A DNA stretch of 64,000 bases from a virus, in the IMG/VR virus record IMGVR_UViG_3300032229_000533, positions 96,001 to 160,000 of that record; one strand, given 5' to 3'. This document shows positions 43,659 to 55,949 of this stretch, piece after piece. Within the stretch, counting starts at the first letter, position 1. Each line of letters begins with the position of its first letter. Under the pieces are notes generated by a model. The model ran no database searches, had not been told where the DNA came from, and saw only the letters and a list, made by a program, of their open reading frames with translations. Position numbers and translations under genes: made by a program.

Positions 43659-43747
43659 TGGCGGAAGGTGAGGGGCTCGAACCCTCGCGACTTTTACATC
43701 CTATCAGTTTAGCAAACTGACCCCTTCACCAACTTGGGTAACCTTCC
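43659..43747 (-). tRNA. tRNA-Ser(GCT)
   Basis: Cloverleaf, loop TTGCTAA, long variable arm, CCA encoded. Confidence 0.92.
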
Positions 43748-43748
43748 A

Positions 43749-44069
43749 TTATTTTATTAACTCCAATAGAACATAAGTTAATTTATATCCTGTAAATGCC
43801 CCAAGAGCAGATGGGATTGGAAACACAATCATCTTACCTAAATCGGTAACATACTTTGGTCTGTTAACAATCTTACCCATAAAAAAATAATAGGTGATAT
43901 ATCCTAACAATACCGCCAAATCTGTCTTGGTTGCAATGAATACAACTAATGTTGCACCTATAAATCCAAAGACAAAATTATCTCTAACTCCTTCCCATAT
44001 TTCGTATGGGGTGGCATCTTTATACTCTTTAACAATTTTTTGAAATGATTTTCTATTTCTCTTAAACAT
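43749..44069 (-). CDS. membrane protein
   Basis: Hydrophobic segments; 106 aa. Confidence 0.55.
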   Translation of the reverse strand: MFKRNRKSFQKIVKEYKDATPYEIWEGVRDNFVFGFIGATLVVFIATKTDLAVLLGYITYYFFMGKIVNRPKYVTDLGKMIVFPIPSALGAFTGYKLTYVLLELIK

Positions 44070-44084
44070 ACTCTAATTTTTTTG

Positions 44085-44158
44085 TCGGAATGGGTGGAAT
44101 TGAACCACCGACCATTTGCGTATAAGGCAACCGCTTCTCACCACTGAGCTACATTCCG
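44085..44158 (-). tRNA. tRNA-Ile(TAT)
   Basis: CGGAATG/CATTCCG acceptor, loop CTTATAC, TTCAATT T-loop. Confidence 0.85.
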
Positions 44159-44233
44159 TATCATACAAATATAAAAAAAATCCCTCTGAATTTCAAACTC
44201 AGAGGGATAAATTATTTTTAATAAAAAATTATT

Positions 44234-44704
44234 TTATTTTAAGAATCTCAATTTATAAATAGTACTGTAAATTAATTCTTGAACAGTATCAATTTGATTT
44301 TGAATAAAAGACTCTTTAACTGACTTTCTATTTTTTTCAATATTTTCATCTAACCCTTTAAAGTAAGTTATTAGTTGCTCTGTTGATTTATAATCAACCA
44401 TTTTAATTGTTTTATATCCTGTTAACAAATCGTTTTTACCTTGGTAGCTCTCAACAATTCCGTCAATTAGTTCAACAATCCCATCGTAATACGTACCTAA
44501 TGCAGTATGTTCAGCAAATGATGATTGTGATTTTGTTTGCCAATGAAATACATGTGCCTGACTTCTTGAATGAAGTAATGTTGAAATCATATCAACAATA
44601 TCCCCATCCTCAGCAATATCATCAGCAGTTTCTTTTTTTTCGGCTTCACTCAACTGTATTACTTTATACAATTGTTCTTTTGTCAATGTTACTCTTTTTT
44701 CCAT
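44234..44704 (-). CDS. ferritin-like DUF5856-type protein
   Basis: QAHVFHWQT..SFAEHTALG.YYD..D.IVESYQG; true start at 44704 (track extension overlaps a tRNA). Confidence 0.65.
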   Translation of the reverse strand: MEKRVTLTKEQLYKVIQLSEAEKKETADDIAEDGDIVDMISTLLHSRSQAHVFHWQTKSQSSFAEHTALGTYYDGIVELIDGIVESYQGKNDLLTGYKTIKMVDYKSTEQLITYFKGLDENIEKNRKSVKESFIQNQIDTVQELIYSTIYKLRFLK

Positions 44705-44742
44705 ACATATAAATACCTTGCCATTTGGAAAAAAATTATTTG

Positions 44743-44814
44743 TACCGATGGGAAGAATTGAACTTCCGACAACTTGGATATGAATCAAGTGCTCTACCAC
44801 TGAACTACATCGGC
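44743..44814 (-). tRNA. tRNA-Met(CAT), probably elongator
   Basis: Loop TTCATAT; paired G1.U72 (not initiator-like); Met versus Ile2 is inferred. Confidence 0.8.
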
Positions 44815-44819
44815 ATTAG

Positions 44820-44894
44820 TGGTTTCATAGGGACTCGAACCCCAACGTCTTTTCGTCCGTAGCGAAATGTTTTATCCAATTAAACTATAAAACC
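44820..44894 (-). tRNA. tRNA-Arg(ACG)
   Basis: TTTCG-CTACGGA-CGAAA anticodon arm. Confidence 0.85.
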
Positions 44895-45557
44895 ATTGTT
44901 GTATTTTTGATAATATTTAACCCATTTTCTAATTGCATTATCACTAACATTATATTTTTTACCTGTCCCAACGTAACCAAACTTTTCAATCTCATCTATC
45001 AAATTGTTGTAGTCAGGTCTTTCTGTTTTTCGTCTATCTTTATAATATTCTTCTTTCTCCTTAGTAAAAATTTTTCTCATATCTTCTTTATATGTTTTAC
45101 TTTTTGTGTTTTTACCACAGTGAGTTGGTAGAGTTGCATTACAGTTTGGACAAACTATTCTTAAATTCTCAATCCTATTATCATTCCAAACCCCATTGAT
45201 ATGGTCAATAATTAACGACATCTTTTTTCCCATCCATTCCTCACCTTGACCACATAATTCGCAATTTCTTTTTTTGATACCTGTTTCATATAACCTTTCC
45301 TTCAATCGGCTCCTATTATATGAGGACCCTTCAGTTAGAATATCATCTAATTGAATGGTTTTTTCTTTGGTTGATTGATTTAATTTTTCAATTCTAACTT
45401 CGTCAGGATTAAAGTGGTCTACATTTATATTATATTTTTTCAAATATTTTTTTAAGGTATTAAAATTACCTCCTGCAGCTCTTAACCCAAGTTTATGTAA
45501 ACACTCTGTTTGTGTTTTAGAATTTTTAACAATTTCATCTAATTTAATTTTATCCAT
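44880..45557 (-). CDS. HNH endonuclease (free-standing, homing-like)
   Basis: CELCG..IDHING..NDNRIENLRIVCPNCNA; own late promoter motif; stop codon lies inside tRNA-Arg. Confidence 0.85.
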   Translation of the reverse strand: MDKIKLDEIVKNSKTQTECLHKLGLRAAGGNFNTLKKYLKKYNINVDHFNPDEVRIEKLNQSTKEKTIQLDDILTEGSSYNRSRLKERLYETGIKKRNCELCGQGEEWMGKKMSLIIDHINGVWNDNRIENLRIVCPNCNATLPTHCGKNTKSKTYKEDMRKIFTKEKEEYYKDRRKTERPDYNNLIDEIEKFGYVGTGKKYNVSDNAIRKWVKYYQKYNNGFIV

Positions 45558-45621
45558 AATTCGAACCTTTAATTATAAATATGTCGAACCATGTAAAAAT
45601 TTATAGTAGAAATAAAAAAAG

Positions 45622-45692
45622 TTGTCCCTGGAGGATTCGAACCTCCACAATTTCCGTCAAAGGGAAATGTCCTGCCATTAGACGAAAGGACA
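45622..45692 (-). tRNA. tRNA-Gln(TTG)
   Basis: TTTCC-CTTTGAC-GGAAA arm. Confidence 0.9.
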
Positions 45693-45699
45693 ATTTGTG

Positions 45700-45781
45700 T
45701 GGGAGTAGTAGGACTCGAACCTACGAACTCAAAAGAGGTTTGATTTACAGTCAAATGCAGTTGCCGCTGTGCCATACTCCC
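45700..45781 (-). tRNA. tRNA-Tyr(GTA)
   Basis: Loop CTGTAAA, long variable arm. Confidence 0.9.
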
Positions 45782-45786
45782 ATTAG

Positions 45787-45858
45787 CACGGATGGAGAAT
45801 TACGATATCCCGACACCTAGTTTTGGAGACTAGTGCTCTGCCCCTGAGCTACATCCGT
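45787..45858 (-). tRNA. tRNA-Trp(CCA), atypical T-loop
   Basis: CTAGT-CTCCAAA-ACTAG arm; T-loop ATCGTAA. Confidence 0.8.
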
Positions 45859-45870
45859 ATTTTTTTTTTG

Positions 45871-45941
45871 AGGTCGGTATAGGATTTGAACCTATGTAAG
45901 CGGTTTTGCAGACCGACGCCTAACCACTCGGCCAACCGACC
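45871..45941 (-). tRNA. tRNA-Cys(GCA)
   Basis: Loop CTGCAAA, U73 discriminator. Confidence 0.92.
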
Positions 45942-45947
45942 TTTTAG

Positions 45948-46022
45948 TGTCCCCGATGGGACTCGAACCCATGACTCCTTCATTAAAAGTGAAGTGCTCT
46001 AAACCAACTGAGCTACGAAGAC
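45948..46022 (-). tRNA. tRNA-Lys(TTT)
   Basis: CTTCA-CTTTTAA-TGAAG arm. Confidence 0.92.
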
Positions 46023-46028
46023 ATTAAG

Positions 46029-46100
46029 TTGTCACGATAGGATTTGAACCTATGACCGCTTCCGTATCAGAGAAGAACTCTACCACTGAGTTACGTGACA
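46029..46100 (-). tRNA. tRNA-Ile(GAT)
   Basis: Loop CTGATAC. Confidence 0.9.
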
Positions 46101-46107
46101 ATAAAAT

Positions 46108-46440
46108 TTATTGTGGTAAAAAAAACATGTTAACAATTACATCCCAAAACCAATTTCTTGGAATTTCTTCACATTCAATTCTACCATTTTGAAAATACGT
46201 TGTTTTATAATACATTGTCGGTGACTTTTGAATTAAAACCCTGTGTTTTGGAGTAAACAACATTGTTTCGGTTAATGATTCATATTCTTTGTCCCATTTT
46301 GCAAACACCTCATGCTCCGAACCTTCAATTATTATTTTTCCTATCTTACCTGTCTTCCATTCAACAATTTCAGTTTTTAATTCAAATCTCTGTGAATGTG
46401 ATAATATTGGTAATAAAAGGAACAGAACAATTATTTTCAT
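46108..46440 (-). CDS. hypothetical secreted protein
   Basis: Signal-peptide-like MKIIVLFLLLPILSHSQ. Confidence 0.55.
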   Translation of the reverse strand: MKIIVLFLLLPILSHSQRFELKTEIVEWKTGKIGKIIIEGSEHEVFAKWDKEYESLTETMLFTPKHRVLIQKSPTMYYKTTYFQNGRIECEEIPRNWFWDVIVNMFFLPQ

Positions 46441-46470
46441 TTTTTTATTTTTTTAATTTAAATAATATTG

Positions 46471-46553
46471 CGGAGGATGAGGGAATCGAACCCCCAAGGC
46501 TTTTACACCCAGCTGATTTCAAGTCAGTGTCCTCGTCCATTCGGGCACCCTCC
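46471..46553 (-). tRNA. tRNA-Ser(TGA)
   Basis: Loop CTTGAAA, long variable arm, G73. Confidence 0.9.
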
Positions 46554-46586
46554 GTATAACCGACCTAGCTCGGTAAACACATCGGA

Positions 46587-46665
46587 TGGGGTGACTAACG
46601 GGAGTCGAACCCGCGACCTCTTGAACCACAATCAAGCGCTCTAAACCAACTGAGCTATAGCCAAC
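46587..46665 (-). tRNA. tRNA-His(GTG)
   Basis: Loop TTGTGGT, G-1:C73, CCA encoded. Confidence 0.9.
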
Positions 46666-46674
46666 ATGTAAAAG

Positions 46675-46795
46675 GTAGGGTTGACTTTATCAGGAATCCA
46701 GTCTCACGACTTCACACACCATTAGAGAGTTGGGTATTACTACCTATCCTTAGTGTGTACCCTTGCGTCACGTCTCTCCACGATTATCAACCTAC
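46675..46795 (-). ncRNA. unclassified structured RNA (module C)
   Basis: Closing helix GTAGGTTGA/TCAACCCTAC; GNRA hairpins GGTA-GTAA-TACC and AGTC-GTGA-GACT; crossing GAGAG/CTCTC and ACACAC/GTGTGT. Confidence 0.65.
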
Positions 46796-46813
46796 GCATT
46801 TTACTACCATTTG

Positions 46814-46913
46814 TAGTCAGGACAGGATTCGAACCTGTAATGGTATTATACATTCCCATTTCCCCTATGATTGGGAGTGCCAATGGTTTATAAGCCAATT
46901 CCACCACCTGACT
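46814..46913 (-). tRNA. aberrant type-II tRNA-like RNA 1 (no assignable anticodon)
   Basis: Perfect AGTCAGG/CCTGACT acceptor, A73, canonical T-arm ACAGG-TTCGAAT-CCTGT; 22-nt D-loop and 13-nt anticodon-position loop. Confidence 0.7.
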
Positions 46914-47304
46914 ATTTTATTAACCCCCACACCTCTTTACAATACTTCTCATTCTCAACCGCCTCAATCTCCATCGGGTGATTCTCATACCCATACTTTT
47001 TCAACATCTTATAGTACTTGCTCGCCACAGGTTGTAATGTGTGAGTGTATTCGTGTAATGTTGTTGTAATCAAATCACTAACATTTTTACAATTATTTTT
47101 AAACACTATAATTGTATGAGTGTCGGGACGATATTCACCATACTTCAAAAAGTCATCGTTTTTACTCTGAGATTTCACAATCGCTTTACAAAAACCTTTT
47201 CTTTTATTCACCCCAAACATAACCTCACAAATACCAATTGTTTTATCAACAATTTGTCTAATCTCTTTGTGTGTTAAAGTCTTCAAATTAGTGTTTATTC
47301 TCAT
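46912..47304 (-). CDS. SprT-like HExxH metalloprotease domain protein
   Basis: LHEYTHTLQ..YENHPMEIEA; start at 47304 downstream of TATCTTTG. Confidence 0.6.
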   Translation of the reverse strand: MRINTNLKTLTHKEIRQIVDKTIGICEVMFGVNKRKGFCKAIVKSQSKNDDFLKYGEYRPDTHTIIVFKNNCKNVSDLITTTLHEYTHTLQPVASKYYKMLKKYGYENHPMEIEAVENEKYCKEVWGLIK

Positions 47305-47368
47305 ATTATATCCCCGTTTTGTTACACAAAGATACGGAATATTCCCCAAATCACCAAAAAAAGTTTTG

Positions 47369-47501
47369 TAGTCAAGGTCGGACTCGAACCGAATACCGTT
47401 CTTGACGGATTAGACAACCTTATAACGTCTCGCGTCCAAATGGTTATGGACCGTGGTGTTTTTCGGACTTGGGTACCTTCCCGCATTACGCCCACTTGAC
47501 T
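47369..47501 (-). tRNA. aberrant type-II tRNA-like RNA 2 with ~50-nt D-loop insertion
   Basis: AGTCAAG/CTTGACT acceptor, A73, TCGG-TTCGAGT-CCGA T-arm, CCGT/ACGG variable arm, AGAC/GTCT stem with 11-nt loop. Confidence 0.7.
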
Positions 47502-47504
47502 AAC

Positions 47505-47705
47505 CCCAGTTGTTCGTTCATCTCGGAGATGGGTGCTCCTGCACGTGTTTCCACCCACGGGATGGTAGCTTTTCTCCTCGGTATTGTAGGACCGAGTGCC
47601 TGTTGAGCAACCATTGGCTACTAATGGTTTTGTTTACCCCCTTCACCAGCTTAATGGACTGGCTGCCATATCGGAAGTGGGGGTTTCCTGTTATTTCAGG
47701 ACTTC
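47505..47705 (-). ncRNA. unclassified structured RNA (module B)
   Basis: Serial hairpins CCTG/CAGG, CCAGT/GCTGG, AACCATT/AATGGTT, CTCGGT/ACCGAG, CGTG/CACG, CATCT/AGATG. Confidence 0.55.
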
Positions 47706-47706
47706 G

Positions 47707-47779
47707 TGGTAAGGGTTGGAATCGAACCAACGGCACAGGGATTTTCAGTCCCTTGCTCTACCTACTGAGCTACCATACC
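47707..47779 (-). tRNA. tRNA-Phe(GAA)
   Basis: AGGGA-CTGAAAA-TCCCT arm. Confidence 0.92.
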
Positions 47780-47784
47780 AAATT

Positions 47785-48090
47785 TGAGGTTGAGACCCTC
47801 TGTGTTGTAGTGTACGATTATGTTTTCCATAATTCAAGTAATGTCACTCATCTTTATATCTCCTTTCTCAAGGGAACAACACAATATTGTTGATAATGAT
47901 GGAGTACCCGTCTCGCTCCAATCTTAAGTGCTTCTTCAGTTTTACGAGGTCCTCGGCACTGTCCTTTTCAGGGGGTGATGAATTCCAATTCCATTCTGAA
48001 GAGTCGACCTTCGTTGAATGGGGAAAACCATTATCAATTCCTTTCGTCGGGGGAGTAGGTCACCAACTTCTTTAACCCCTACTCCCCCAC
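47785..48090 (-). ncRNA. unclassified structured RNA (module A)
   Basis: Perfect 11-bp stem 48049-48059/48078-48088; CTTCAG/CTGAAG, CGAG/CTCG, GGAG/CTCC, GTGTTGT/ACAACAC. Confidence 0.55.
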
Positions 48091-48097
48091 ATTATTG

Positions 48098-48169
48098 TAG
48101 TCGGTACGGGAATCGAACCCGTCTTTTATCCGTGAAAGGGATATGTCCTAACCGATAGACTAACCGACC
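48098..48169 (-). tRNA. tRNA-Glu(TTC)
   Basis: TATCC-CTTTCAC-GGATA arm. Confidence 0.92.
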
Positions 48170-48176
48170 AATTGTG

Positions 48177-48249
48177 TAGTCCCTGTAGGACTCGAACCTA
48201 CGACTGCTTGCATGTAAGGCAAGAGCTCTACCAACTGAGCTAAAGGACT
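48177..48249 (-). tRNA. tRNA-Val(TAC)
   Basis: CTTGC-CTTACAT-GCAAG arm. Confidence 0.92.
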
Positions 48250-48262
48250 ATTTTTTTCCAAC

Positions 48263-48274
48263 ATGTCAAAGACC
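48263..48274 (-). promoter_or_regulatory. boxA-like antitermination element
   Basis: GGTCTTTGACAT, near-identical to the copy at 51610-51621; resembles rRNA-operon boxA. Confidence 0.6.
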
Positions 48275-48294
48275 TATTTTGTTTTTCAACGATA

Positions 48295-48302
48295 CAAAGG
48301 TA
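48295..48302 (-). promoter_or_regulatory. Bacteroidetes-type -7 promoter element (TACCTTTG)
   Basis: Matches TAnnTTTG upstream of a tRNA sub-operon. Confidence 0.65.
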
Positions 48303-48334
48303 ATACATTTTTTTTAAAGTTTTGGACTAAAAAC

Positions 48335-48371
48335 AAAAAACCCCAAACTTTTTTTCAAAGTTCGGGGTTTT
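48335..48371 (-). terminator. intrinsic terminator (attenuator 1)
   Basis: CCCCGAACTT/AAGTTTGGGG stem followed by TTTTTTGTTTTT. Confidence 0.85.
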
Positions 48372-48422
48372 AATATCTTGTTATTTCTAACTTGTTATTA
48401 ACGTACTACCTTATATCCGAAC

Positions 48423-48506
48423 TCAATTTTGCATATGACGATACCAGCTACAGAATACCTCTTGTTGCTTAATAACCGACGACATATGTTTAATTGATGT
48501 TCTCAT
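48423..48506 (-). CDS. 27-aa putative leader peptide 1
   Basis: MRTSIKHMSSVIKQQEVFCSWYRHMQN*; stop codon overlaps candidate antiterminator strand GAGTTCGG (48417-48424). Confidence 0.6.
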   Translation of the reverse strand: MRTSIKHMSSVIKQQEVFCSWYRHMQN

Positions 48507-48569
48507 TGTTTTATAATTATTACAATAATACGAAAAGTTTCGTATTTGTCAAATATTTTTTTGTTTTAG

Positions 48570-48642
48570 TACCCCAAGAGGGATTCGAACCCTCAAAAAC
48601 TTGTTCCTAAGACAAGCGTGTATACCGTTCCACCATCGGGGT
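48570..48642 (-). tRNA. tRNA-Leu(TAG), short variable loop
   Basis: CTTGT-CTTAGGA-ACAAG arm; 5-nt variable region; A73. Confidence 0.85.
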
Positions 48643-48648
48643 GTTCAT

Positions 48649-48736
48649 CACATCGTACAGGCATTCTACTCCCAGCTCCGAGGAATTGTATCTAACTTAG
48701 CCCTTCTCCACCGCTGTATGGGTACCTGAGGATATG
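48649..48736 (-). ncRNA. unclassified rod-like structured RNA (module F)
   Basis: Nested CATATC/GATGTG, CAGGTA/TGCCTG and CAGC/GCTG helices. Confidence 0.45.
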
Positions 48737-48742
48737 ATTTTG

Positions 48743-48816
48743 TATCCCCGATTGGATTCGAACCAATGACCCACAGCTTAGAAGGCTGTTGCTCTATCCA
48801 ACTGAGCTACGGAGAC
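48743..48816 (-). tRNA. tRNA-Arg(TCT)
   Basis: ACAGC-CTTCTAA-GCTGT arm. Confidence 0.92.
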
Positions 48817-48825
48817 ATATTTTTG

Positions 48826-48913
48826 TGGTACCGAGAGCGGGACTCGAACCCGCACGAACATTACTGTCCAAGGGATTTTAAGTCCCTCGTGTCTACCTTT
48901 TCACCACCTCGGC
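48826..48913 (-). tRNA. tRNA-Leu(TAA)
   Basis: AGGGA-CTTAAAA-TCCCT arm, long variable arm, CCA encoded. Confidence 0.92.
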
Positions 48914-48961
48914 GTCTTGTTTTGTTGTACAAATATAGGAAATAAAATTGGATACTACAAC

Positions 48962-49681
48962 TTATAGAGAAAAATTTTCTTCAAATAATGTATTTGAATC
49001 ATTTTCTTCTGTGTTGTAAGTGTGTTCTAATTCAACGGTTGAATTGTTGAAATTAAAGATGAATCGTCCGTCAGAACCTTCGTTGATTTCCCAACCACCG
49101 AAATGACTTTCAAGTTGACTATAACACCAATCTTCAATTGAGGCAGGAACTGCATCACTTGTTTCATCAAATGAACTTTCAATATAACCAGAATCTCCAC
49201 CACCATTGTAACTTAGAGTTAGGATACCATCACTTGGAACTTCAACATCTTGCATGTCTTCTTCCATCCACTTATCAAATCTTGATTTATCCTCGTCAGA
49301 ATCATACTCAACTGTATTACCATCACCTCTATCGTAATATGAATAATTGTGAGTTACGGTAAGTTCTTTTCTCTTACAATCAATTTCAATATCAATGTTT
49401 TGATAACTCATTGTATCCATATCAGGAGATTCATATGCACCCTCAGAAATAACATGATTCATTACTTTTTTAAGAATTGGTGTCAATCCGTCAGGTAACT
49501 CTGCTCTATAGTTATTTTCAAAATGTTGTATACGTCTCCAATCAATGTCATCATGTGACAAGTCATATTGGTCTGAATCCAATTCAATACTAATTACTCC
49601 TTCTGTCATACCCAATGACGCAAGATAGTTACAAGTTCTGTTTAAGTATTTTTTTTCGTCTGGGGTTAAAATTTCTGCCAT
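48962..49681 (-). CDS. conserved phage protein (DUF6878-like)
   Basis: YNGGGDSGYI..GGWEINEGSDG motifs; start at 49681. Confidence 0.6.
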   Translation of the reverse strand: MAEILTPDEKKYLNRTCNYLASLGMTEGVISIELDSDQYDLSHDDIDWRRIQHFENNYRAELPDGLTPILKKVMNHVISEGAYESPDMDTMSYQNIDIEIDCKRKELTVTHNYSYYDRGDGNTVEYDSDEDKSRFDKWMEEDMQDVEVPSDGILTLSYNGGGDSGYIESSFDETSDAVPASIEDWCYSQLESHFGGWEINEGSDGRFIFNFNNSTVELEHTYNTEENDSNTLFEENFSL

Positions 49682-49692
49682 ATTAATAAATA

Positions 49693-50040: not shown

Positions 50041-50058
50041 ATTTTATTTATTTATTTG

Positions 50059-50132
50059 TGGAGAAGGAGGGACTCGAACCCGCGACTTCTTGAATGCAAA
50101 TCAAGCGCTCTAGCCAACTGAGCTACATCCCC
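50059..50132 (-). tRNA. tRNA-Ala(TGC)
   Basis: G3.U70, loop TTTGCAT. Confidence 0.92.
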
Positions 50133-50140
50133 AAACACTT

Positions 50141-50257
50141 TTAGTATAAACCATCTGTAATTGATTTATAGATAAGTACAACCATTCCGATTGCCCACGC
50201 ACTTACCGCTAATATAATTACGGTGTCTTTCAGTGTAATTTTCTTTAACAACTTCAT
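50141..50257 (-). CDS. 38-aa single-pass membrane peptide (not in ORF track)
   Basis: MKLLKKITLKDTVIILAVSAWAIGMVVLIYKSITDGLY*; TATCTTTG element upstream. Confidence 0.5.
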   Translation of the reverse strand: MKLLKKITLKDTVIILAVSAWAIGMVVLIYKSITDGLY

Positions 50258-50330
50258 AATGTTTTTTTAATGGTTTTCAAAATAGGTTACAAAGATAAAT
50301 AAAAAGGTTTAATTACCAAAAATATTTTTG

Positions 50331-50404
50331 AGCCTCCTGTCGGATTCGAACCAACGACATTCGCATTACAAGTGCGACGCTCTGGCCAACTGAGCTAAGG
50401 AGGC
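50331..50404 (-). tRNA. tRNA-Thr(TGT)
   Basis: TCGCA-CTTGTAA-TGCGA arm. Confidence 0.92.
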
Positions 50405-50410
50405 GTTTTC

Positions 50411-50490
50411 GGTAAAGAATAGTCACGACCACCTCTGTTTCTCTTTACCTGTTATTCAATCGTGGCACAATGTGGTACGACCCTAACTGA
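50411..50490 (-). ncRNA. unclassified two-hairpin RNA (module E)
   Basis: GGTAAAGA/TCTTTACC and GTCGT/ACGAT stems with loop-loop complementarity ACCAC/GTGGT. Confidence 0.45.
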
Positions 50491-50496
50491 ATCTTG

Positions 50497-50570
50497 CGGT
50501 TCGGACGGGACTCGAACCCGCGACCTCCTGCGTGACAGGCAGGCATTCTAACCAGCTGAACTACCGAACC
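50497..50570 (-). tRNA. tRNA-Asp(GTC)
   Basis: CCTGC-CTGTCAC-GCAGG arm. Confidence 0.93.
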
Positions 50571-50574
50571 AAAA

Positions 50575-50780
50575 TTCCCCACCTGAGATTCCAGTGAGTG
50601 GATTTTTCTTCTGTTTTCCTATTGAAAACACGAGACGGTCTTACCCGCACATAAACGTCAAACATACTCGGTGGGTTTGTTACGCCCAGGCTCCGACGAA
50701 CCCCCTCTCTAAAGTCGTGGAAGGCTACAACTATACCATTATTAAGAAACGGTACCAAATCTATTGGGTATCTCTTACCC
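50575..50780 (-). ncRNA. unclassified structured RNA (module D)
   Basis: GC-rich 200-nt spacer with GGGTA/TACCC, CGAC/GTCG, GTTTT/AAAAC and CCAC/GTGG helices. Confidence 0.5.
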
Positions 50781-50784
50781 CTTG

Positions 50785-50857
50785 AGCGGTAGACAGGTCT
50801 CGAACCTGCGACTTCGTACTTGGAAGGAACGCGCTCTACCAACTGAGCTACTACCGC
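50785..50857 (-). tRNA. tRNA-Gly(TCC)
   Basis: Loop CTTCCAA, U73. Confidence 0.9.
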
Positions 50858-51387
50858 ATTATTAAATTGTCATGTATTTCAAAATGACAATTTGAACAAA
50901 CTAACATACACTTATCAACTTCATTTTTTAAGTTTTCAAAACTAAGACTTTTTCCTGATATCTGAAAATCTTTTTCTTTTGGGGTTTTATGATGAAATTG
51001 TAATGCTCTATCACATTTATTATACCCACATATTTCACATTTTCCACCCTTATATTCTATCAATTCACGTTTTTTTCTTTTTCTCCACGATATTACATTT
51101 TCTGAATTTGTTTTAGGAATTTTATCTCTTGTAATAACGTATTTTTTAACTGTTTCAAATGCATGTCCCTTAAGTTTTGCAACTTTTTTCAAAGAACCAA
51201 TTTCATCATACAAAACTTGTAACTCTTTCTTTTCCTCGTCACTCAAAGACACATCCTCACCTCCAAGTTTATGTAAGTTACAATGATAAGATACAGTTGA
51301 CATAGCACAATTCAATTCGTTACAAATTTCTTTATACGTTTTACCTGATTTTCTTAATTCTATAATTTTTTCGGAGTATCTACCCAT
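50851..51387 (-). CDS. HTH-HNH endonuclease (homing-like)
   Basis: N-terminal HTH; GGKCEICGY..ALQFHH..VCSNCHFEIH; stop codon lies inside tRNA-Gly. Confidence 0.82.
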   Translation of the reverse strand: MGRYSEKIIELRKSGKTYKEICNELNCAMSTVSYHCNLHKLGGEDVSLSDEEKKELQVLYDEIGSLKKVAKLKGHAFETVKKYVITRDKIPKTNSENVISWRKRKKRELIEYKGGKCEICGYNKCDRALQFHHKTPKEKDFQISGKSLSFENLKNEVDKCMLVCSNCHFEIHDNLIMR

Positions 51388-51432
51388 AATTAATATTTTA
51401 ATTAATAAATATTAGACACTTCGTAAAAAATG

Positions 51433-51516
51433 CTGGTACGGTAGGATTCGAACCTACGATGTGGTCACCCAGTCAGGTTAACAGCCTGATGCTCTCGGCC
51501 TCTAAGCGACGTACCA
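51433..51516 (-). tRNA. tRNA-Asn(GTT) with long variable arm
   Basis: TCAGG-CTGTTAA-CCTGA arm; 15-nt variable region containing TGG-GTGA-CCA; G73. Confidence 0.85.
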
Positions 51517-51522
51517 ATTATG

Positions 51523-51595
51523 TAGAGTAGACAGGGGTCGAACCTGCACGCACTTGCTCCCAAAGCAAGGGACCTACCAATTGGTCAACTACTCT
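51523..51595 (-). tRNA. tRNA-Pro(TGG)
   Basis: CTTGC-TTTGGGA-GCAAG arm. Confidence 0.9.
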
Positions 51596-51609
51596 ATTTT
51601 ATTTCCCAC

Positions 51610-51621
51610 ATGTCAAAGAAC
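51610..51621 (-). promoter_or_regulatory. boxA-like antitermination element
   Basis: GTTCTTTGACAT upstream of the first tRNA of the unit. Confidence 0.65.
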
Positions 51622-51625
51622 ACTA

Positions 51626-51633
51626 CAAATATA
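51626..51633 (-). promoter_or_regulatory. Bacteroidetes-type -7 promoter element (TATATTTG)
   Basis: Matches TAnnTTTG. Confidence 0.65.
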
Positions 51634-51649
51634 CAAAAGAAAACCTTTA

Positions 51650-51688
51650 AAAACAAAAAACCCCGAACTTTTTATGTTCAGGGTTTTT
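51650..51688 (-). terminator. intrinsic terminator (attenuator 2)
   Basis: CCCTGAAC/GTTCGGGG stem followed by TTTTTTGTTTTT. Confidence 0.85.
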
Positions 51689-51712
51689 AAATTTTGGCTT
51701 CTTAGTATTCCA

Positions 51713-51802
51713 TTATTTAAAGTCTGAACATGAGCATAGAGTGCCTAACCCGTCATTTGTCGGTGTTAAATTCGCTCTATCAAGTGTGTTCAAATTTTTC
51801 AT
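51713..51802 (-). CDS. 29-aa putative leader peptide 2
   Basis: MKNLNTLDRANLTPTNDGLGTLCSCSDFK*; late motif TATTTATA at 51811-51818; contains ATGTTCAG complementary to the terminator 5' arm. Confidence 0.6.
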   Translation of the reverse strand: MKNLNTLDRANLTPTNDGLGTLCSCSDFK

Positions 51803-51844
51803 AATGTTTCTATAAATATAGTCAAAAATTTAAAAAATCAACCC

Positions 51845-52105
51845 CTACAGGTATTTTTTGAATAAATCTTCCAAAGTTTTTTCATCTTCTTGTGAAAGAC
51901 GGTAATATTTTTCTTTCAATAGGTCCATTTTCTCAATGAAAACTCCCTCTAAAACTCCAATGTTTTTTTCAGTATCTTCTACTGCGGATGGACTAATATG
52001 TCCTCCCTCAATTAGAGCTTCAATAAGTTCTTTAATGTCTCGTTTGTTACATGCTGATACAAACTCATCGGCATCAACGTCTACGTATGTGTCAAATTCT
52101 GGCAT
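51845..52105 (-). CDS. hypothetical protein
   Basis: Start MPEFDTY at 52105 downstream of TATATTTG. Confidence 0.6.
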   Translation of the reverse strand: MPEFDTYVDVDADEFVSACNKRDIKELIEALIEGGHISPSAVEDTEKNIGVLEGVFIEKMDLLKEKYYRLSQEDEKTLEDLFKKYL

Positions 52106-52190
52106 GATATGTTTTTTTTTTAAATTGTACAATGCAAATATAAGGACTATTTTGGAACATTCCAACTATTTATTAAGATAAATTATTGAA

Positions 52191-53357
52191 ATGAAGTTAA
52201 ACAGAAAAAACATATTAAAAGAGGGTTTATTTACAAATTTACTTAAAACTTCAGTTAAAACATTACCATCAACTTTCAAATATCTTGATGATATTACAAG
52301 ATTAATGACCCCTGAAGTCAAAGCAATCGCCAACACAACTACACCAGCAATTCTGAATGTAAGTGAAGGAACTGCAAAAAGATTTTATAAAGATTTTTTT
52401 CTATCAACAAACCAATTGTCAAGAAATGCTACTAAAGTTTCAATGGAAGGGTTAACTCAAAAAGGTATTCAAAATTTAATAGGATTGAAAAAAAATATAT
52501 CTGACTTATTAAACTTGACTAATGTGTCTCCTGGTGCAAAAATAGATGCAAAAAACCTAATAAATGTTGTACATAGTACAAAGAATGGGGTTGATAATTT
52601 AGTTAATGAGTTGAAATTAGTTAAACCAAATAGTGCGGATTTAACAGTTGCAAAAGAAATGCAGACACAAATTGATGATGTTATTTCTAAAAATAATACA
52701 ATTTTTAAAAATGCGACCATGGGGACATCTACATCAACTAACCCAAAACCAGTTGTTAAACCAAAAGTCGAGCCAAAATCACTAACTAAACCAAAAGTTG
52801 AACCTAAACCAATAGTTAAACCAAAAGTTGAGCCAAAACCAACGGTTAAAACAAAAGTTGAACCAAAAGTTAAATCATCATCGCCTAAAGTTAAAATACC
52901 TGTGGGAAACTTCAACGAAGTCCAAATTATAAGAGGTTCGTATAACCTTCCAACACAAAAATCTGCACGTTTTGTTGACCAACTGCTTGAAAAATCTTTC
53001 TATGAGGGGTTTGGAAAACGTCACGATATGTGGTCAGATGAAATTATAAATCAATTAACCCCTGAAACAAAAAGTTATTTGTTACAATTGAAAAAAAATC
53101 TTGAAAAAGAAGGTTTGTTGTATACAAATGGATTTACACAAGAATTTAAAAGGTTACCAAAAACGGCAGATGAAGAAATAAAATTACTTTCTGGAAATCA
53201 TTGGGGTGGACTTGGAAGAAGAATGGGTGCACAAAATTCAATCAAATCTTTACCTATCCCAAGCAATAGTGTAATTCAAAATTTATTAGACAAGACAATG
53301 CAATCATCCAAGAAAGAAGAGATTTTGCAACTTTATAAAACTTTGTTTAATAAGTAA
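52191..53357 (+). CDS. hypothetical late protein with KPKVEPK repeats
   Basis: TATTTAT at 52167-52173; NILKE-G leader; repeats at ~52745-52870. Confidence 0.65.
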   Translation: MKLNRKNILKEGLFTNLLKTSVKTLPSTFKYLDDITRLMTPEVKAIANTTTPAILNVSEGTAKRFYKDFFLSTNQLSRNATKVSMEGLTQKGIQNLIGLKKNISDLLNLTNVSPGAKIDAKNLINVVHSTKNGVDNLVNELKLVKPNSADLTVAKEMQTQIDDVISKNNTIFKNATMGTSTSTNPKPVVKPKVEPKSLTKPKVEPKPIVKPKVEPKPTVKTKVEPKVKSSSPKVKIPVGNFNEVQIIRGSYNLPTQKSARFVDQLLEKSFYEGFGKRHDMWSDEIINQLTPETKSYLLQLKKNLEKEGLLYTNGFTQEFKRLPKTADEEIKLLSGNHWGGLGRRMGAQNSIKSLPIPSNSVIQNLLDKTMQSSKKEEILQLYKTLFNK

Positions 53358-53514
53358 ATTTAATTGTATCCCCTTCTGAATAACGAATACCTGAGAAAAT
53401 AACACCTGTTTGTGTTGTGTCACCCAAAGACTTAACTTCGTACTTGTATTGTCCGTTGTCTACTGTTTGACAACACAATACCAAAAATAGTTTAATTCCA
53501 ATTATTGTTTTCAT
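53347..53514 (-). CDS. 55-aa putative secreted peptide (not in ORF track)
   Basis: MKTIIGIKLFLVLCCQTVDNGQYKYEV..., coupled to the upstream ORF. Confidence 0.4.
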   Translation of the reverse strand: MKTIIGIKLFLVLCCQTVDNGQYKYEVKSLGDTTQTGVIFSGIRYSEGDTIKFTY

Positions 53515-53810
53515 TTTGTCAATAACATTAAAATTTTCTCTTTTGCTTCTTCAGTTGTGGAGTTATTTCGTCCACCAATATTCCACTCAATTTCTTCATC
53601 CATCCCAATTACTCGGCGATATTTCCAATCATAAACGGTAATGACTTCAGCGTTATCCAATTCTCTAATCCATTCCATTGTAACTTTTCCGTCACTACTT
53701 CTACCATTGGTCATTTCACCCAATGATTTGATTAATTGATTTGGTGTCGCTTTAAATGTGCTTCCGTGAAAACTCGTTCCGTTTGCGCTTGCTGTTGGCA
53801 TGTGTAACAT
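53511..53810 (-). CDS. conserved phage hypothetical protein
   Basis: GTSFHG..DGKVTMEW..TVYDWK..WNIGG motifs. Confidence 0.6.
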   Translation of the reverse strand: MLHMPTASANGTSFHGSTFKATPNQLIKSLGEMTNGRSSDGKVTMEWIRELDNAEVITVYDWKYRRVIGMDEEIEWNIGGRNNSTTEEAKEKILMLLTK

Positions 53811-53849
53811 AATTTGTTTTTATTAAGGATACAAAGATAATATTTTTTT

Positions 53850-54236
53850 CTAACTTGCCAACTCCTGATTTAACTTTTTTTCCAAACCTGAAATAATATA
53901 TGATGCCGTCATGTAGTTGGTTGCAAGTGGTGTGTTATATACATTACAAATCCTTAACAACATATTCACATCAACTTGGTGGGGATGAACCTCCAATGGG
54001 TCAATAAAGAACACAACCCCTGAGATTTCACCATCGGCAATCATTGATGCAATTTGGGCGTCACCACCAAGTGGTCCTGACTTCATACATTCAACATCCA
54101 ATCCCGCGTGTTCAATATGTTTTCCTGTGGTACCTGTCGCAATAACCTCAACCCTTTTGAAAAAATCCAACCTTTTCATAACAAAGGCAACCATGTCAGC
54201 CTTCTTTCCATCGTGAGCAATAACAGCAATTTTCAT
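53850..54236 (-). CDS. mgsA: methylglyoxal synthase
   Basis: IAVIAHDGKK, ATGTTG, SGPLGGDAQI, DPLEVHPHQVDV, LATN. Confidence 0.93.
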   Translation of the reverse strand: MKIAVIAHDGKKADMVAFVMKRLDFFKRVEVIATGTTGKHIEHAGLDVECMKSGPLGGDAQIASMIADGEISGVVFFIDPLEVHPHQVDVNMLLRICNVYNTPLATNYMTASYIISGLEKKLNQELAS

Positions 54237-54238
54237 AA

Positions 54239-54544
54239 TTATTTTTGTTTTTCGTGAATTGAATTCTTACAATTTCCTTTGTGAGTCCCCCAAGTAAAAT
54301 GACTATTTCCTGGTGAAACTACAATATATTCACATCCTTCTAAAGTGTAAATTTGGTAATATCTATCGTATGGTTCTGTAGAGGTACCAAGTTGTTTAAT
54401 TTCAACAGGTTGTGATACCGTGTTTGGTTCAGGTTCCTTTTTAATATTAAAGTTACAACCTGATAATACTGTCATTAAAATCATTGATAGGATGATTATC
54501 AATATTCCTGCGGACAATCGTTTCATTACTTTTTCGTTATACAT
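54239..54544 (-). CDS. putative lipoprotein
   Basis: Hydrophobic signal ending LSGC; GCEYI..THKGNCKN. Confidence 0.65.
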   Translation of the reverse strand: MYNEKVMKRLSAGILIIILSMILMTVLSGCNFNIKKEPEPNTVSQPVEIKQLGTSTEPYDRYYQIYTLEGCEYIVVSPGNSHFTWGTHKGNCKNSIHEKQK

Positions 54545-54559
54545 ATTTTAAAATTTTTG

Positions 54560-54633
54560 TGGACCCTGCAGGATTTGAACCTGCGACCATCACATTATGA
54601 GTGTGCCGCTCTGACCGTCTGAGCTAAGGGTCC
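54560..54633 (-). tRNA. tRNA(CAT), probably Ile2 (lysidine-type)
   Basis: GGACCCT acceptor and CTCATAA loop resemble bacterial Ile2; identity inferred. Confidence 0.8.
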
Positions 54634-54797
54634 ATTGGAATGTTTAGAATAACACCAAATCTCCGTTGATGTTATCCCAATCATCTGAAACTGGTGACAT
54701 TACAACAATGGTTGTATCTTCAGTTTCTTCTTGGGTTTTGATTGTTGGTTCGTTTTTCATGTTGCAAATATATAACATTTAAATATATCACACAAAT

Positions 54798-55211
54798 TTA
54801 TTCTACGGTGTGTTCCCATTGAACTCTAACACAATTTTGAGGTAACCTATGAATGTGTCTGTAATTGTTAATATACCCCATCATATTAGCACTTCCAATT
54901 GCATTTGCTGAGTGTACAACAACATCAACAACAGGACTTCCATCCATCCATTTTTCAACCAACCATTTGGTACAATCCATACCAGTTTTTTCGGTGATGT
55001 TGTCGTAGTTCAATTCGTAATTGTGGTAAACATTCTTATGCCATTCAACCATTGCACTATGACCCAAGTCATGGTCCAAAGAAATTAATTCAATATTTTC
55101 CAAACCAATTTCATTAATTTTATCTACGAATTGCTCGTAGTCTCTAACAACAACCCAATTCTCCACATCAACTGGAGTTCTTACGTCATCTAAGTAAATT
55201 CTTTTTTTCAT
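54798..55211 (-). CDS. cyclic-phosphate-processing receiver-domain protein
   Basis: IYLDDVRTP, ISLDHDLG, TGMDCTKWL, VHSANAIG. Confidence 0.75.
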   Translation of the reverse strand: MKKRIYLDDVRTPVDVENWVVVRDYEQFVDKINEIGLENIELISLDHDLGHSAMVEWHKNVYHNYELNYDNITEKTGMDCTKWLVEKWMDGSPVVDVVVHSANAIGSANMMGYINNYRHIHRLPQNCVRVQWEHTVE

Positions 55212-55268
55212 AACACAAATATAAAATAAAATTTGGAGTTTCAAAACTCTTTTAAGATATTTATAGTT

Positions 55269-55307
55269 ATGATGACAAACAAAACCTCAGTGGTCTTTTG
55301 GAATTGA
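55269..55307 (+). CDS. 12-aa putative leader peptide 3
   Basis: MMTNKTSVVFWN* directly after TATTTATA (55258-55265), upstream of a terminator and the HNH gene. Confidence 0.4.
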   Translation: MMTNKTSVVFWN

Positions 55308-55384
55308 AGTCATATAATGAGAACTTAGGTGTAAAGAGGATTGGAAATCTCTAACCATAAACAATCTAAATCAATACAATATTC

Positions 55385-55422
55385 AAAAGGGGTGAAAAAT
55401 TTTTCATCCCTTTTTTGTTTTT
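55385..55422 (+). terminator. intrinsic terminator upstream of HNH gene
   Basis: GGGGTGAAAA/TTTTCATCCC stem followed by TTTTTTGTTTTT. Confidence 0.8.
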
Positions 55423-55460
55423 TGTATGAAAATAACTTATTCTTTTAAAAAACTATAAAA

Positions 55461-55949
55461 ATGAGCGGAGTATTAGTGCTGAATTATGATTATACCCCAT
55501 TGAATATAACTTCAACAAGGAGGGGGTTTGTACTTGTAGATAAAGGTAAAGCGGAGATTGTAAAATCTGACGAGAACCCTATTATTGCAGGTTTTAACAC
55601 CTATGTTAGACCTTTAATTATTAGACTATTAAGTTATATTAAACATAATACAAGGAATATTAGGGTTAACAGAACAAGGATTTATAAAAGGGACAATCAT
55701 GAATGTGTTTATTGCGGGTCAAAAAAACAATTAACTTTAGACCACGTAATACCTAAATCAAGAGGAGGACGTAATGAATGGACTAATTTGGTGACATGTT
55801 GTTTTAAATGTAACCTTAGAAAAGGAAACAAGACTCCTGAAGAAGCAAAAATGACAATGAACGTAAAACCATATGTTCCGTCATTGTTAAATGAAAATGG
55901 ATTATTAAATAAAGTGTGGAATGATTATCAACAATCCTTTGTTTATTAG
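55461..55949 (+). CDS. McrA-like HNH endonuclease
   Basis: VLVLNYDYTPL, CVYCG, TLDHVIPKSRGG, NLVTCCFKCNLRKG. Confidence 0.9.
   Translation: MSGVLVLNYDYTPLNITSTRRGFVLVDKGKAEIVKSDENPIIAGFNTYVRPLIIRLLSYIKHNTRNIRVNRTRIYKRDNHECVYCGSKKQLTLDHVIPKSRGGRNEWTNLVTCCFKCNLRKGNKTPEEAKMTMNVKPYVPSLLNENGLLNKVWNDYQQSFVY

Follow-up and report, generated by a model that had tools for sequence, protein, structure and literature searches.

Two units on the minus strand of a phage genome fragment are, as judged from their sequence, likely to be ribosome-mediated transcription attenuators of tRNA genes that the phage itself carries, and the phage probably makes these extra tRNAs only during a ribosomal shortage of the same tRNAs. 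Both units lie in the 64,000-nt stretch of IMGVR_UViG_3300032229_000533 that we analysed (hereafter the window), and all coordinates are positions within it. The evidence points to a large phage of Bacteroidota, and as to the host it reaches Bacteroidota only; no cultured relative was found in the phage collection. The sequence and comparative evidence for both units fits ribosome-mediated attenuators. The decisive part of the case is the comparison across phage contigs, which strongly supports the core of this reading, namely leader-peptide attenuation before phage tRNA genes (as an initial annotation of this DNA had proposed, and as both the leader-array match and the antiterminator complement argue), followed by an rrn-type boxA.

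Anatomy of the two units and their relatives

All elements of both units are on the minus strand. Unit 1 begins with a TATTTATA promoter-like motif (51811-51818), conserved in L073-L078, whose function as a promoter is presumed, and which lies 8 nt 5' of the start codon of leader ORF 1 (51713-51802; 29 codons plus stop), whose frame and length are conserved in the same relatives. Because the start follows the presumed promoter motif so closely, the mRNA of leader 1 would be nearly leaderless. Region 1 occupies codons 4-6 (51787-51793), and region 2, the candidate antiterminator strand, lies inside the last codons (51723-51732). An intrinsic terminator (51645-51686) then separates the leader from the tRNAs, with regions 3 and 4 forming the stem 51686-51658 and a T-rich tail that doubles as the -33 TTTG (51657-51654) of the next promoter. 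The host-type -7 element of that promoter, TAnnTTTG (51626-51633), is found 20 nt downstream of the TTTG, and its position, unlike its two free bases, is constant in relatives. A boxA-like element (51602-51620; 17 of 18 positions match the 18-mer that we searched for) precedes tRNA array 1 (48569-51595), in which tRNA-Pro, starting at 51595, is followed by Asn, Gly, Asp, Thr, Ala, Leu(taa), Arg(tct) and Leu(tag), with interspersed ORFs (HNH, DUF6915, DUF6878).

Unit 2 repeats this order, which is borne out as a common plan, as the initial annotation had it, both by the anatomy in the window and by conservation in relatives. Its TAATTATA promoter-like motif (48512-48519), conserved in class B relatives and a promoter only by presumption, stands 5 nt 5' of the start codon of leader ORF 2 (48423-48506; 27 codons plus stop), and a sigma-70-like match is found nearby (48552-48525). 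Region 1 spans codons 2-5 (48492-48502) and region 2 overlaps the TGA stop (48417-48424). The intrinsic terminator (48329-48370; stem 48370-48338), again between leader and tRNAs, has the same T-rich tail as that of unit 1, and between it and the box lies a TAnnTTTG -7 element (48295-48302), also conserved in class B relatives. The boxA-like element (48255-48273) matches the 18-mer exactly (18/18). Array 2 (44742-48249) opens with tRNA-Val at 48249 and continues with Glu, Phe, His, Ser(tga), Ile(gat), Lys, Cys, Trp, Tyr, Gln, Arg(acg) and Met, with ORFs and tRNA-like RNAs interspersed; tRNA-Trp (45858-45787) was found by Rfam only.

About 50 related units with a common architecture occur in IMG/VR phage contigs, and a rule-based search, for a terminator no more than 130 nt ahead of a tRNA together with a short ORF ending just upstream, gave 47 non-redundant units. 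Both units are present with their order unchanged in L030, L055, L061, L068 and L076-L078. The conserved leader position expected in the initial annotation was found when related phages were compared, with frame, length and architecture kept.

Leader codons and the tRNAs downstream

All 9 tRNA species of array 1 have one or more cognate codons in leader 1, and all 13 species of array 2 are likewise represented in leader 2. When windows of the phage's ORFs served as controls, coverage as complete as that of leader 1 was reached in 0.43% of cases; of 9,303 windows, each of 27 codons and drawn from long ORFs of the phage, none covered all 13 species. The match is far higher in frame than in the +1 and +2 frames (for leader 1 against array 1, 0.75 compared with 0.39 and 0.32), and its limitation to one frame lends indirect support to translation of the leaders. 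Eight residues of leader 1 have no tRNA in array 1 by ARAGORN (Lys2, Cys23, Ser24, Cys25, Ser26, Phe28, Lys29 and the initiator Met); the corresponding residues of leader 2 are Thr3, Trp21 and Asn27, of which Trp21 is matched by the tRNA-Trp that Rfam alone detected. Across 12 leader classes, every amino acid of an array is present in its leader, and among 40,320 permutations none matches leaders to arrays as well as the true pairing. Coverage is full in 38 of the 47 rule-picked units, as against 18% of mismatched pairs.

Having viewed the window, we predicted matching leaders at other arrays and then examined the complete jumbo phages G001 and G002. There, a His/Gln/Pro-rich leader (with HIQPQPQQHPQ) stands 5' of a Pro-His-Gln array, a Tyr/Lys-rich leader (with YYYSKKSYKK) stands 5' of a Lys-Tyr array, and a leader rich in D/E/V/L/A/W stands 5' of an Asp/Glu/Val/Leu/Ala/Trp array; at a Thr/Cys/Ser/Phe/Gly/Asn/Arg array, amino acids with a tRNA in the array make up 90% of the leader. 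The leaders would hence be specific sensors for the tRNA species of their own arrays. The initial annotation had seen in them a sensor of translation stress; a sensing of translation remains probable, whereas a general stress gauge does not fit, since the codons of each leader match its own array. Each regulatory codon occurs 1-5 times in the window leaders, without the long runs of classical attenuators, and sensitivity to any single tRNA may therefore be low.

This correspondence bears on two other explanations. According to the first, the units are ordinary gene ends, in which small protein genes, or ORFs that arose by chance, are followed by normal terminators, the arrays have promoters of their own, and any resemblance to attenuators is coincidental. 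Such an account would suit the class A leaders, which are partly hydrophobic and conserved as peptides, but it leaves the best-of-all pairing of leaders with arrays in 12 classes unexplained, as it does the relatives of leader 1, in which substitutions are mostly non-synonymous and yet composition, frame and length are unchanged. Taken with the terminator evidence given below, we regard it as extremely unlikely.

The second explanation dispenses with translation: the leader triplets, which do match the anticodons of the downstream tRNAs, would pair directly with these (uncharged) tRNAs and stabilise the antiterminator in the manner of a T-box, a class of RNA that likewise regulates genes of the tRNA system. 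We consider this very unlikely, because the matching triplets are confined to one frame that is bounded by a start and a stop and is conserved, the other two frames being far poorer, and because region 2 always lies within the ribosome footprint of the stop codon or shortly 5' of it. Moreover, Rfam searches relaxed to E = 1 matched neither a T-box nor any other riboswitch, and the leaders contain 9-19 different specifier-like triplets, a number not known from any T-box. Sensing by a translating ribosome remains the reading that we prefer.

Antiterminator pairing and the proposed switch

To judge the antiterminators, we compared the 47 units with 31 ordinary terminators from the same genomes. 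Upstream complementarity to the terminator 5' arm averages z = -3.0 (-13.9 kcal/mol) in the units and z = -0.2 (-5.8 kcal/mol) in the ordinary terminators (Mann-Whitney p = 2e-11). The upstream complement is specific to terminators that precede tRNAs, which speaks against ordinary gene ends. In the window, region 2 of unit 1 complements the 5' arm and loop of the terminator (duplex -10.6 kcal/mol, z ~ -2) and region 2 of unit 2 complements the 5' arm (-12.1 kcal/mol, z ~ -1.9); few members of the family have weaker antiterminators than these, which face terminators of -14.6 and -18.9 kcal/mol, respectively.

Two other terminators of the window lack an upstream complement. The first (44208-44180, minus strand; z = -0.23) is an ordinary terminator, not an attenuator, with an overlapping TAnnTTTG promoter, followed by tRNA-Ile(tat) and tRNA-Ser(gct) (43659-44208). 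The compaction of terminator and promoter is found here too, and to that extent the arrangement in the two units would be compatible with plain gene ends. The second (55385-55414; z = -0.17, the level of ordinary terminators) ends a small transcript on the plus strand, 5' of an HNH gene, in which a TATTTATA motif is followed by about 120 nt and then the terminator; it shares the T-rich tail of both units and is conserved as an RNA in relatives (55258-55427). It had been put forward as a third leader, an interpretation that we rejected, as L061, L055 and L068, which are more distantly related, no longer have its 12-codon ORF and as an antiterminator is absent.

Covariation between terminator and antiterminator, which the initial annotation had named as a check, was found at two levels. 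Regions 2 and 3 change together between classes, the pairing of unit 1 changing together with that of unit 2, and within class A the 2:3 pairing has 12 cells changed on both sides, a number reached by 1 of 500 shuffles. The 1:2 pairing in class A is maintained in 97% of cells, without covariation. An anti-antiterminator formed by regions 1 and 2 appears in the minimum-free-energy fold of unit 1 (z = -5.9) and in the fold of unit 2 (z = -5.3), and also in a ribosome-mask model of unit 1, in which an untranslated leader lets region 1 pair with region 2. In this model the probability that the terminator 5' arm is sequestered is 0.21 when no ribosome is present; it is 0.58-0.63 for ribosome positions at codons 2-15 and 18-21, drops to 0.23-0.32 for codons 16-17, and is 0.08-0.14 from codon 23 to the stop. 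The contrast is weak in unit 2, where an equilibrium model gives a modest difference only (0.72 versus 0.45).

From the anatomy, conservation, covariation and codon-tRNA correspondence observed here we infer how leader translation and switching would proceed. Four segments of the RNA take part: region 1 falls among the early codons, region 2 at the last codons or stop, and regions 3 and 4 are the terminator arms. With sufficient aminoacyl-tRNAs, the ribosome would reach the stop and cover region 2, regions 3 and 4 would fold, and transcription would end. With no ribosome loaded, region 1 would hold region 2, and termination would follow likewise. If a charged tRNA is lacking and the ribosome stalls within the leader, the free region 2 would pair with region 3, preventing the terminator and allowing read-through into the array. 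As each leader has a codon for every tRNA species of its array, any single shortage would switch on the whole array, and the newly made tRNAs would act as negative feedback, closing the loop. The coupling of transcription to translation is poorly characterised in Bacteroidota.

Promoters, boxA and comparison with known systems

Within the window alone, short motifs are at chance level (an 11-nt box with one mismatch has 6 matches versus 6.2 expected), and the evidence for the box comes from outside it. We found the 18-mer at 70 loci of IMG/VR, which represent 49 distinct contexts; almost always it lies 5-15 nt ahead of the tRNA that opens an array, and it also sits between tRNA-Ala and the 5' end of the 23S gene in the rrn operons of many Bacteroidota genomes, which is the position of boxA. 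This position, together with the GTTCTTT core, leads us to assign it as boxA; we found no paper that names the Bacteroidota 18-mer as such. The role of boxA in NusB/NusE binding and antitermination is known from work in E. coli (PMC10250234). The phage's copy of the host rrn boxA probably recruits NusB/NusE-type factors that let the polymerase cross the long untranslated array, most likely by giving it Nus-dependent processivity or Rho resistance. An rrn-type boxA, as the initial annotation suggested, is indeed present, but it would not gate the arrays, because it is placed 3' of the attenuator and of the second promoter (in the window the box, of 18-19 nt, follows the TAnnTTTG -7 element by 5-21 nt).

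The two kinds of promoter motif are both associated with genes: 31 of 54 TATTTATA sites genome-wide lie at most 40 nt upstream of an ORF start, versus 3.4% of random positions, and the two-part TTTG/TAnnTTTG motif is upstream of ORFs in 50% of sites, versus 6.6%. A host-type TAnnTTTG promoter between terminator and boxA implies that in the phage's clade the array also has a constitutive input and that the attenuator cannot be the sole control; the attenuator would add demand-regulated transcription from the phage-type TATTTATA-like promoter, a division of timing between promoters that we infer. The conserved promoter between each window terminator and its array is also what ordinary gene ends would show. 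In other clades, however, TAnnTTTG is absent between the terminator and the first tRNA, a distance of only 12-25 nt in units without the box and 30-111 nt in units with it. Most of these units have TAnnTTTG 9-68 nt (mostly 24-57 nt) before the leader start, and transcription of their tRNAs would therefore have to pass the terminator.

The internal promoter, conserved in the clade, and the comparative weakness of the window antiterminators raise a further alternative, in which the attenuator works in other jumbo phages while here an inserted TAnnTTTG has taken over and the units merely end upstream transcription. We think this unlikely: every tRNA species of the two arrays still has a codon in the corresponding leader, relatives at 70-88% DNA identity, among them the seven named above as carrying both units, retain frame, length and regions 1-4, and leader 1 keeps its own conserved promoter-like motif.

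Our literature searches found no report of demand-sensing transcription control of phage tRNA genes, and no published description of tRNA genes under leader-peptide control with leader codons that match the tRNAs downstream. The closest relatives in mechanism are the trpL, hisL, leuL, thrL, ilvL and pheL attenuators of Proteobacteria. There, as we propose for the phage units, a short leader with many regulatory codons is translated, the RNA can form 1:2, 2:3 or 3:4 hairpins as alternatives, an intrinsic terminator precedes the controlled genes, and a stalled ribosome promotes read-through. These attenuators regulate enzymes, whereas the phage units, which are phage-borne and have a Bacteroidota-type promoter context, would regulate tRNA genes; one phage leader samples up to 19 amino acids with one or a few codons each, in contrast to the classical run of one or two. 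We found no sequence or Rfam relationship between the two. The pheST attenuator of E. coli (pheM leader) is a case of leader-peptide attenuation of a translation-apparatus gene and senses the supply of charged tRNA-Phe; it is chromosomal and controls a synthetase in response to a single amino acid, and not tRNA genes.

T-box riboswitches are similar in sensing tRNA status through a terminator/antiterminator switch 5' of genes of the aminoacylation system, but they bind tRNA directly, without a ribosome, while the phage specifier triplets form an ORF; the phage units have no T-box features and no Rfam T-box match, whether at the gathering score or with E relaxed to 1. The rrn antitermination leader (boxA, NusB/NusE, rrnTAC) and the lambda nut site differ from the phage box, which heads tRNA arrays and lies 3' of an attenuator. 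Finally, phage tRNA clusters have been described as supply or counter-defence, with phage tRNAs replacing missing or cleaved host tRNAs, as when a T5 tRNA neutralises PARIS (PMC11464382). Those reports concern the tRNAs themselves, whereas the units described here would concern the control of their transcription.

Leader codons and the tRNA genes downstream

The two minus-strand units are built as the initial annotation claimed, each with a short ORF (29 codons in unit 1, 27 in unit 2), a strong intrinsic terminator with a common T-rich tail, a TAnnTTTG promoter, a 19-nt box that hardly differs between the two and then a tRNA gene. Short motifs within the window alone do not rise above chance, and the case for these units depends on comparison with other genomes. 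In the window, leader 1 consists mostly of the amino acids of its downstream tRNAs, and leader 2 of the complementary set. We treated this mirroring as a prediction and tested it on new genomes, two complete jumbo phages of 349 and 327 kb, both of which carry a terminator and a short ORF ahead of every tRNA sub-array. In these phages, a leader containing HIQPQPQQHPQ precedes a Pro-His-Gln array, and one containing YYYSKKSYKK precedes a Lys-Tyr array. For the Thr/Cys/Ile/Ser/Phe/Gly/Asn/Arg array, 90% of the leader residues are ones for which the array has a tRNA; the leader of the Asp/Glu/Val/Leu/Ala/Trp array is rich in D, E, V, L, A and W; in one variant, where two tRNA-Arg genes have joined the Pro-His-Gln array, the leader contains Arg; and leaders of arrays covering 17-19 amino acids contain 19 different amino acids.

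Across 12 classes, no array amino acid is missing from its own leader, and for the eight informative classes the true assignment of leaders to arrays outranks every other of the 40,320 permutations. With the ORF chosen purely by rule, full coverage is reached by 38 of 47 non-redundant units, compared with 18% of mismatched pairs, and in several of those that fall short the cause is a mistaken choice of ORF, a start codon that is probably GTG, or a merged array. The match is reading-frame specific and, for nearly all tRNA species, extends to the anticodon. In the window, cognate codons are present in leader 1 for 9 of 9 tRNA species and in leader 2 for 13 of 13, a coverage attained by 0.43% (leader 1 set) and 0 of 9,303 (leader 2 set) of the equal-length windows from the phage's own long ORFs.

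Conservation of leader position in related phages, which the initial annotation had named as a check, was found as well. In L073-L078, close relatives with 70-72% identity in the neighbouring protein, leader 1 has exactly 29 codons with start and stop kept, its codon changes are mostly amino-acid-altering, and the TAnnTTTG after the terminator is retained, with its two free bases varying. The T-rich tail is conserved because it supplies the -33 TTTG of this following promoter. Units 1 and 2 are both present, in the same order, in L030, L055, L061, L068 and L076-L078, and at most loci collected for comparison the sequence upstream of the box shows a promoter, a short ORF, a terminator-complementary stretch at the ORF end and a terminator, as in the window. 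No close relative of this contig was found among deposited phage genomes, and public phage genomes searched with the array and with single units gave tRNA or trivial matches only and no cultured relative. A match in LR756504, a 636-kb uncultured phage, was rejected as a similar terminator only, lying after a different short ORF and before an EF-G-like gene, with no tRNAs nearby.

The window covers positions 96001-160000 of an IMG/VR virus contig that is 182 kb long (completeness estimate 61%), and ARAGORN places 24 tRNA genes on its minus strand at 43659-54633. Rfam adds two further minus-strand matches: a tRNA-Trp at 45858-45787 (anticodon CCA, 47 bits) with an unusual T arm, missed by ARAGORN, whose array slot holds a normal tRNA-Trp in relatives, and, at 46913-46814, 100 nt with weak similarity to a tRNA (30.5 bits), which sit in a 1-kb stretch (46665-47705) between tRNA-His and tRNA-Phe without convincing ORFs. 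The ORFs interspersed among the tRNAs vary from relative to relative; here they encode DUF6915, DUF6878 and DUF5856 proteins and two minus-strand HNH endonucleases (44880-45557, and 50851-51387 with an additional HTH domain), both probably homing endonucleases.

Predicted pairing of the leader end with the terminator

The layout of both units is the classical one of 1:2, 2:3 and 3:4 pairings, where regions 1 and 2 are the early and late leader segments, regions 3 and 4 the terminator arms, and 2:3 the antiterminator. Each leader ORF folds as a long self-hairpin (z = -5.9 in unit 1, -5.3 in unit 2), so that early region 1 holds late region 2. In unit 1, 7-10 nt in the last ORF codons are complementary to the 5' arm of the terminator, and in unit 2 the complementary stretch overlaps the stop codon; between the two units this pairing differs at one position, which is changed on both strands. 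For 47 units, the upstream complement to the terminator 5' arm has a mean z of -3.0 (-13.9 kcal/mol), whereas 31 ordinary terminators of the same genomes give -0.2 (-5.8 kcal/mol; p = 2e-11), and in most units the complementary strand ends 1-26 nt ahead of the end of the stop codon.

The initial annotation had proposed looking for covarying terminator/antiterminator pairs, and these were recovered at two levels. Between classes, region 2 changes together with the terminator, and in the class with the best sampling, compensatory changes are seen where the 2:3 helix is extended, with 12 cells changed on both sides, a number reached by 1 of 500 shuffles. Some of the 2:3 extensions are not common to the terminator 3' arm, indicating that the 2:3 pairing is itself under selection. 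Regions 1 and 2 of the same class are 97% paired, yet invariant.

We also used a crude equilibrium model in which a 28-nt ribosome footprint is masked and the nascent RNA is folded up to the terminator loop. In unit 1, the probability that the 5' arm is sequestered stands at 0.21 without a ribosome. A ribosome at codons 2-15 or 18-21 raises it to 0.58-0.63, one at codons 16-17 gives 0.23-0.32, and between codon 23 and the stop the value falls to 0.08-0.14. This modelled profile is as expected of an attenuator and lends the reading weak support; for unit 2 and three further classes, the contrast is modest or, in the Lys/Tyr class, oddly placed.

In many Asp/Glu/Val/Leu leaders from other phages, 12-14 nt just 5' of the terminator are identical or nearly so to the 3'-terminal sequence of 16S rRNA in Bacteroidota (CACCTCCTTTCT). 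The stretch lies between region 2 and the terminator in L026, L025, L004, L057 and other units of the best-sampled class, and it is absent from both window units.

Taken together, codon mirroring, 2:3 complementarity and conservation strongly support the attenuator reading of the initial annotation, and the family is, on this comparative evidence, probably a tRNA-sensing attenuator system.

Promoters, the boxA-like element and neighbouring genes

In other clades, a host-type TAnnTTTG lies 9-68 nt (mostly 24-57) upstream of most leaders, and none occurs between the terminator and the first tRNA, a distance of 12-25 nt without a box and 30-111 nt with one. In units with such an upstream promoter, tRNA transcription would thus need to pass the terminator, and in some clades the gated route appears to be the sole one. 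In the window's clade, a TAnnTTTG stands between terminator and box, and the motif TATTTATA occurs 8 nt ahead of leader 1, with a one-mismatch variant ahead of leader 2. Within the window's own contig, 31 of 54 TATTTATA sites lie 3-39 nt upstream of an ORF start, compared with 3.4% of random positions that fall within 40 nt upstream of one. This motif is probably a phage-specific promoter, from which many mRNAs would have very short 5' leaders. The phage of the window would then likely combine a constitutive input from the host-type promoter with a demand-regulated input from the phage-type promoter. Because internal promoters are present, we hold a strong regulatory role in this particular phage to be somewhat less probable than the attenuator reading of the family.

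The box, taken as 18 nt, occurs at 70 IMG/VR loci in 49 distinct contexts, nearly always 5-15 nt ahead of an array's first tRNA. Bacterial genomes carry this 18-mer too, mainly those of Bacteroidota, where it sits between tRNA-Ala and the 23S rRNA 5' end. In rrn operons this is where the spacer boxA lies (PMC10250234), and the assignment of the box as boxA is supported by this position and by sequence identity. The identity with the Bacteroidota rrn 18-mer, together with the TAnnTTTG promoters, indicates, at the level of the phylum, a Bacteroidota host. As a promoter element the box was rejected, since many loci have a TAnnTTTG 7-25 nt ahead of it and the box itself occurs within rrn spacers. 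The further idea that boxA gates the arrays did not hold: it lies after both the constitutive and the demand-regulated input, and hence does not gate; most likely it would shield the untranslated array from premature, Rho-type termination. Box-tRNA units of the phage type were also seen in L105, a contig binned as Candidatus Shapirobacteria that has the terminator as well, and in L123, a Saprospirales MAG; both match IMG/VR phage loci and are therefore probably phage contigs binned with bacterial genomes.

Of the three leader units originally proposed, only the one ahead of the HNH gene fell away. In this plus-strand element (55258-55427), a TATTTATA motif is followed by about 120 conserved nt and by a terminator that has the T-rich tail of the units, and the transcript would measure about 150 nt. 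Only the nearest relatives have its 12-codon ORF, whereas L061, L055 and L068 have lost it and keep the RNA blocks; the fold of the element is unremarkable (z = -1.5), and its terminator has no upstream complement (z = -0.17). On these grounds it was rejected as a leader-peptide attenuator, and it is better described as a conserved small transcript, perhaps an sRNA or a regulatory 5' leader. The minus-strand ORF at 54778-54644 (44 codons, preceded by a TAnnTTTG promoter), which ends 10 nt ahead of tRNA-Met(54633), was likewise rejected as a leader unit because no terminator lies between the two, and they are apparently co-transcribed. The terminator ahead of tRNA-Ile(tat) is an ordinary one and was dismissed as an attenuator. 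A full-length tmRNA gene (37087-37468, plus strand; Rfam 90.5 bits) lies 6 kb from the arrays, and ribosome rescue by a phage tmRNA may be functionally related to the adjacent stalling-based sensors.

Among 30 tRNA loci of three Bacteroidota genomes, a small sample of hosts, we found simple TAnnTTTG promoters and no leader-plus-terminator unit, and hence no sign in this sample that the system is used by hosts. Host Thr-Tyr-Gly-Thr tRNA operons on Bacteroidota chromosomes (L168/L193, L178) have a short hairpin and T-run right after TAnnTTTG, without an ORF, which may be a different promoter-proximal control element.

Proposed control of tRNA supply and its relation to known attenuation

Genes for tRNAs are usually viewed as controlled at their promoters, through growth rate and the stringent response, and phage tRNAs as passively expressed cargo. 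We consider it likely, with a little less assurance than for the attenuator family itself, that jumbo phages possess a modular homeostat of tRNA supply, in which the tRNA complement is divided into sub-arrays, each gated by a leader peptide that serves as a barcode, with a codon for all of the tRNA species under its control. A shortage of any one charged tRNA would then switch on just the matching sub-array, and possible causes of such shortages are a mismatch in codon usage, the shut-off of the host or defence nucleases that cleave tRNAs. Phage tRNAs have been described as counter-defence (PMC11464382), a plausible reason for such a sensor, although the link is speculation.

Rfam yielded no known leader, riboswitch or sRNA family, either at its gathering score or with E relaxed to 1 (NsiR1 and YrlA appear as weak rows far below threshold), and full-text searches of the literature brought up no account of attenuation acting on tRNA genes or of phage tRNAs whose expression is regulated. 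If true, this would be the first class of attenuators with non-coding RNA genes as targets, and the first case of viral tRNAs controlled by demand sensing. It would account for the grouping of jumbo-phage tRNA genes, allow one to read from sequence which tRNAs a phage treats as limiting, and give an experimental handle on how phages monitor translation capacity, including possible responses to anticodon nucleases. The leaders would also be ready-made codon-specific sensors for Bacteroidota, a phylum for which few regulatory parts are known.

The mechanism proposed for the phage units is of the known kind, leader-peptide attenuation, and codon-specific attenuation of tRNA genes would carry this textbook mechanism to a new class of targets. 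Set against the known systems, the novelty is threefold: tRNA genes are the target, the element is borne by a jumbo phage of Bacteroidota, and a multi-amino-acid barcode is matched to a multi-tRNA array.
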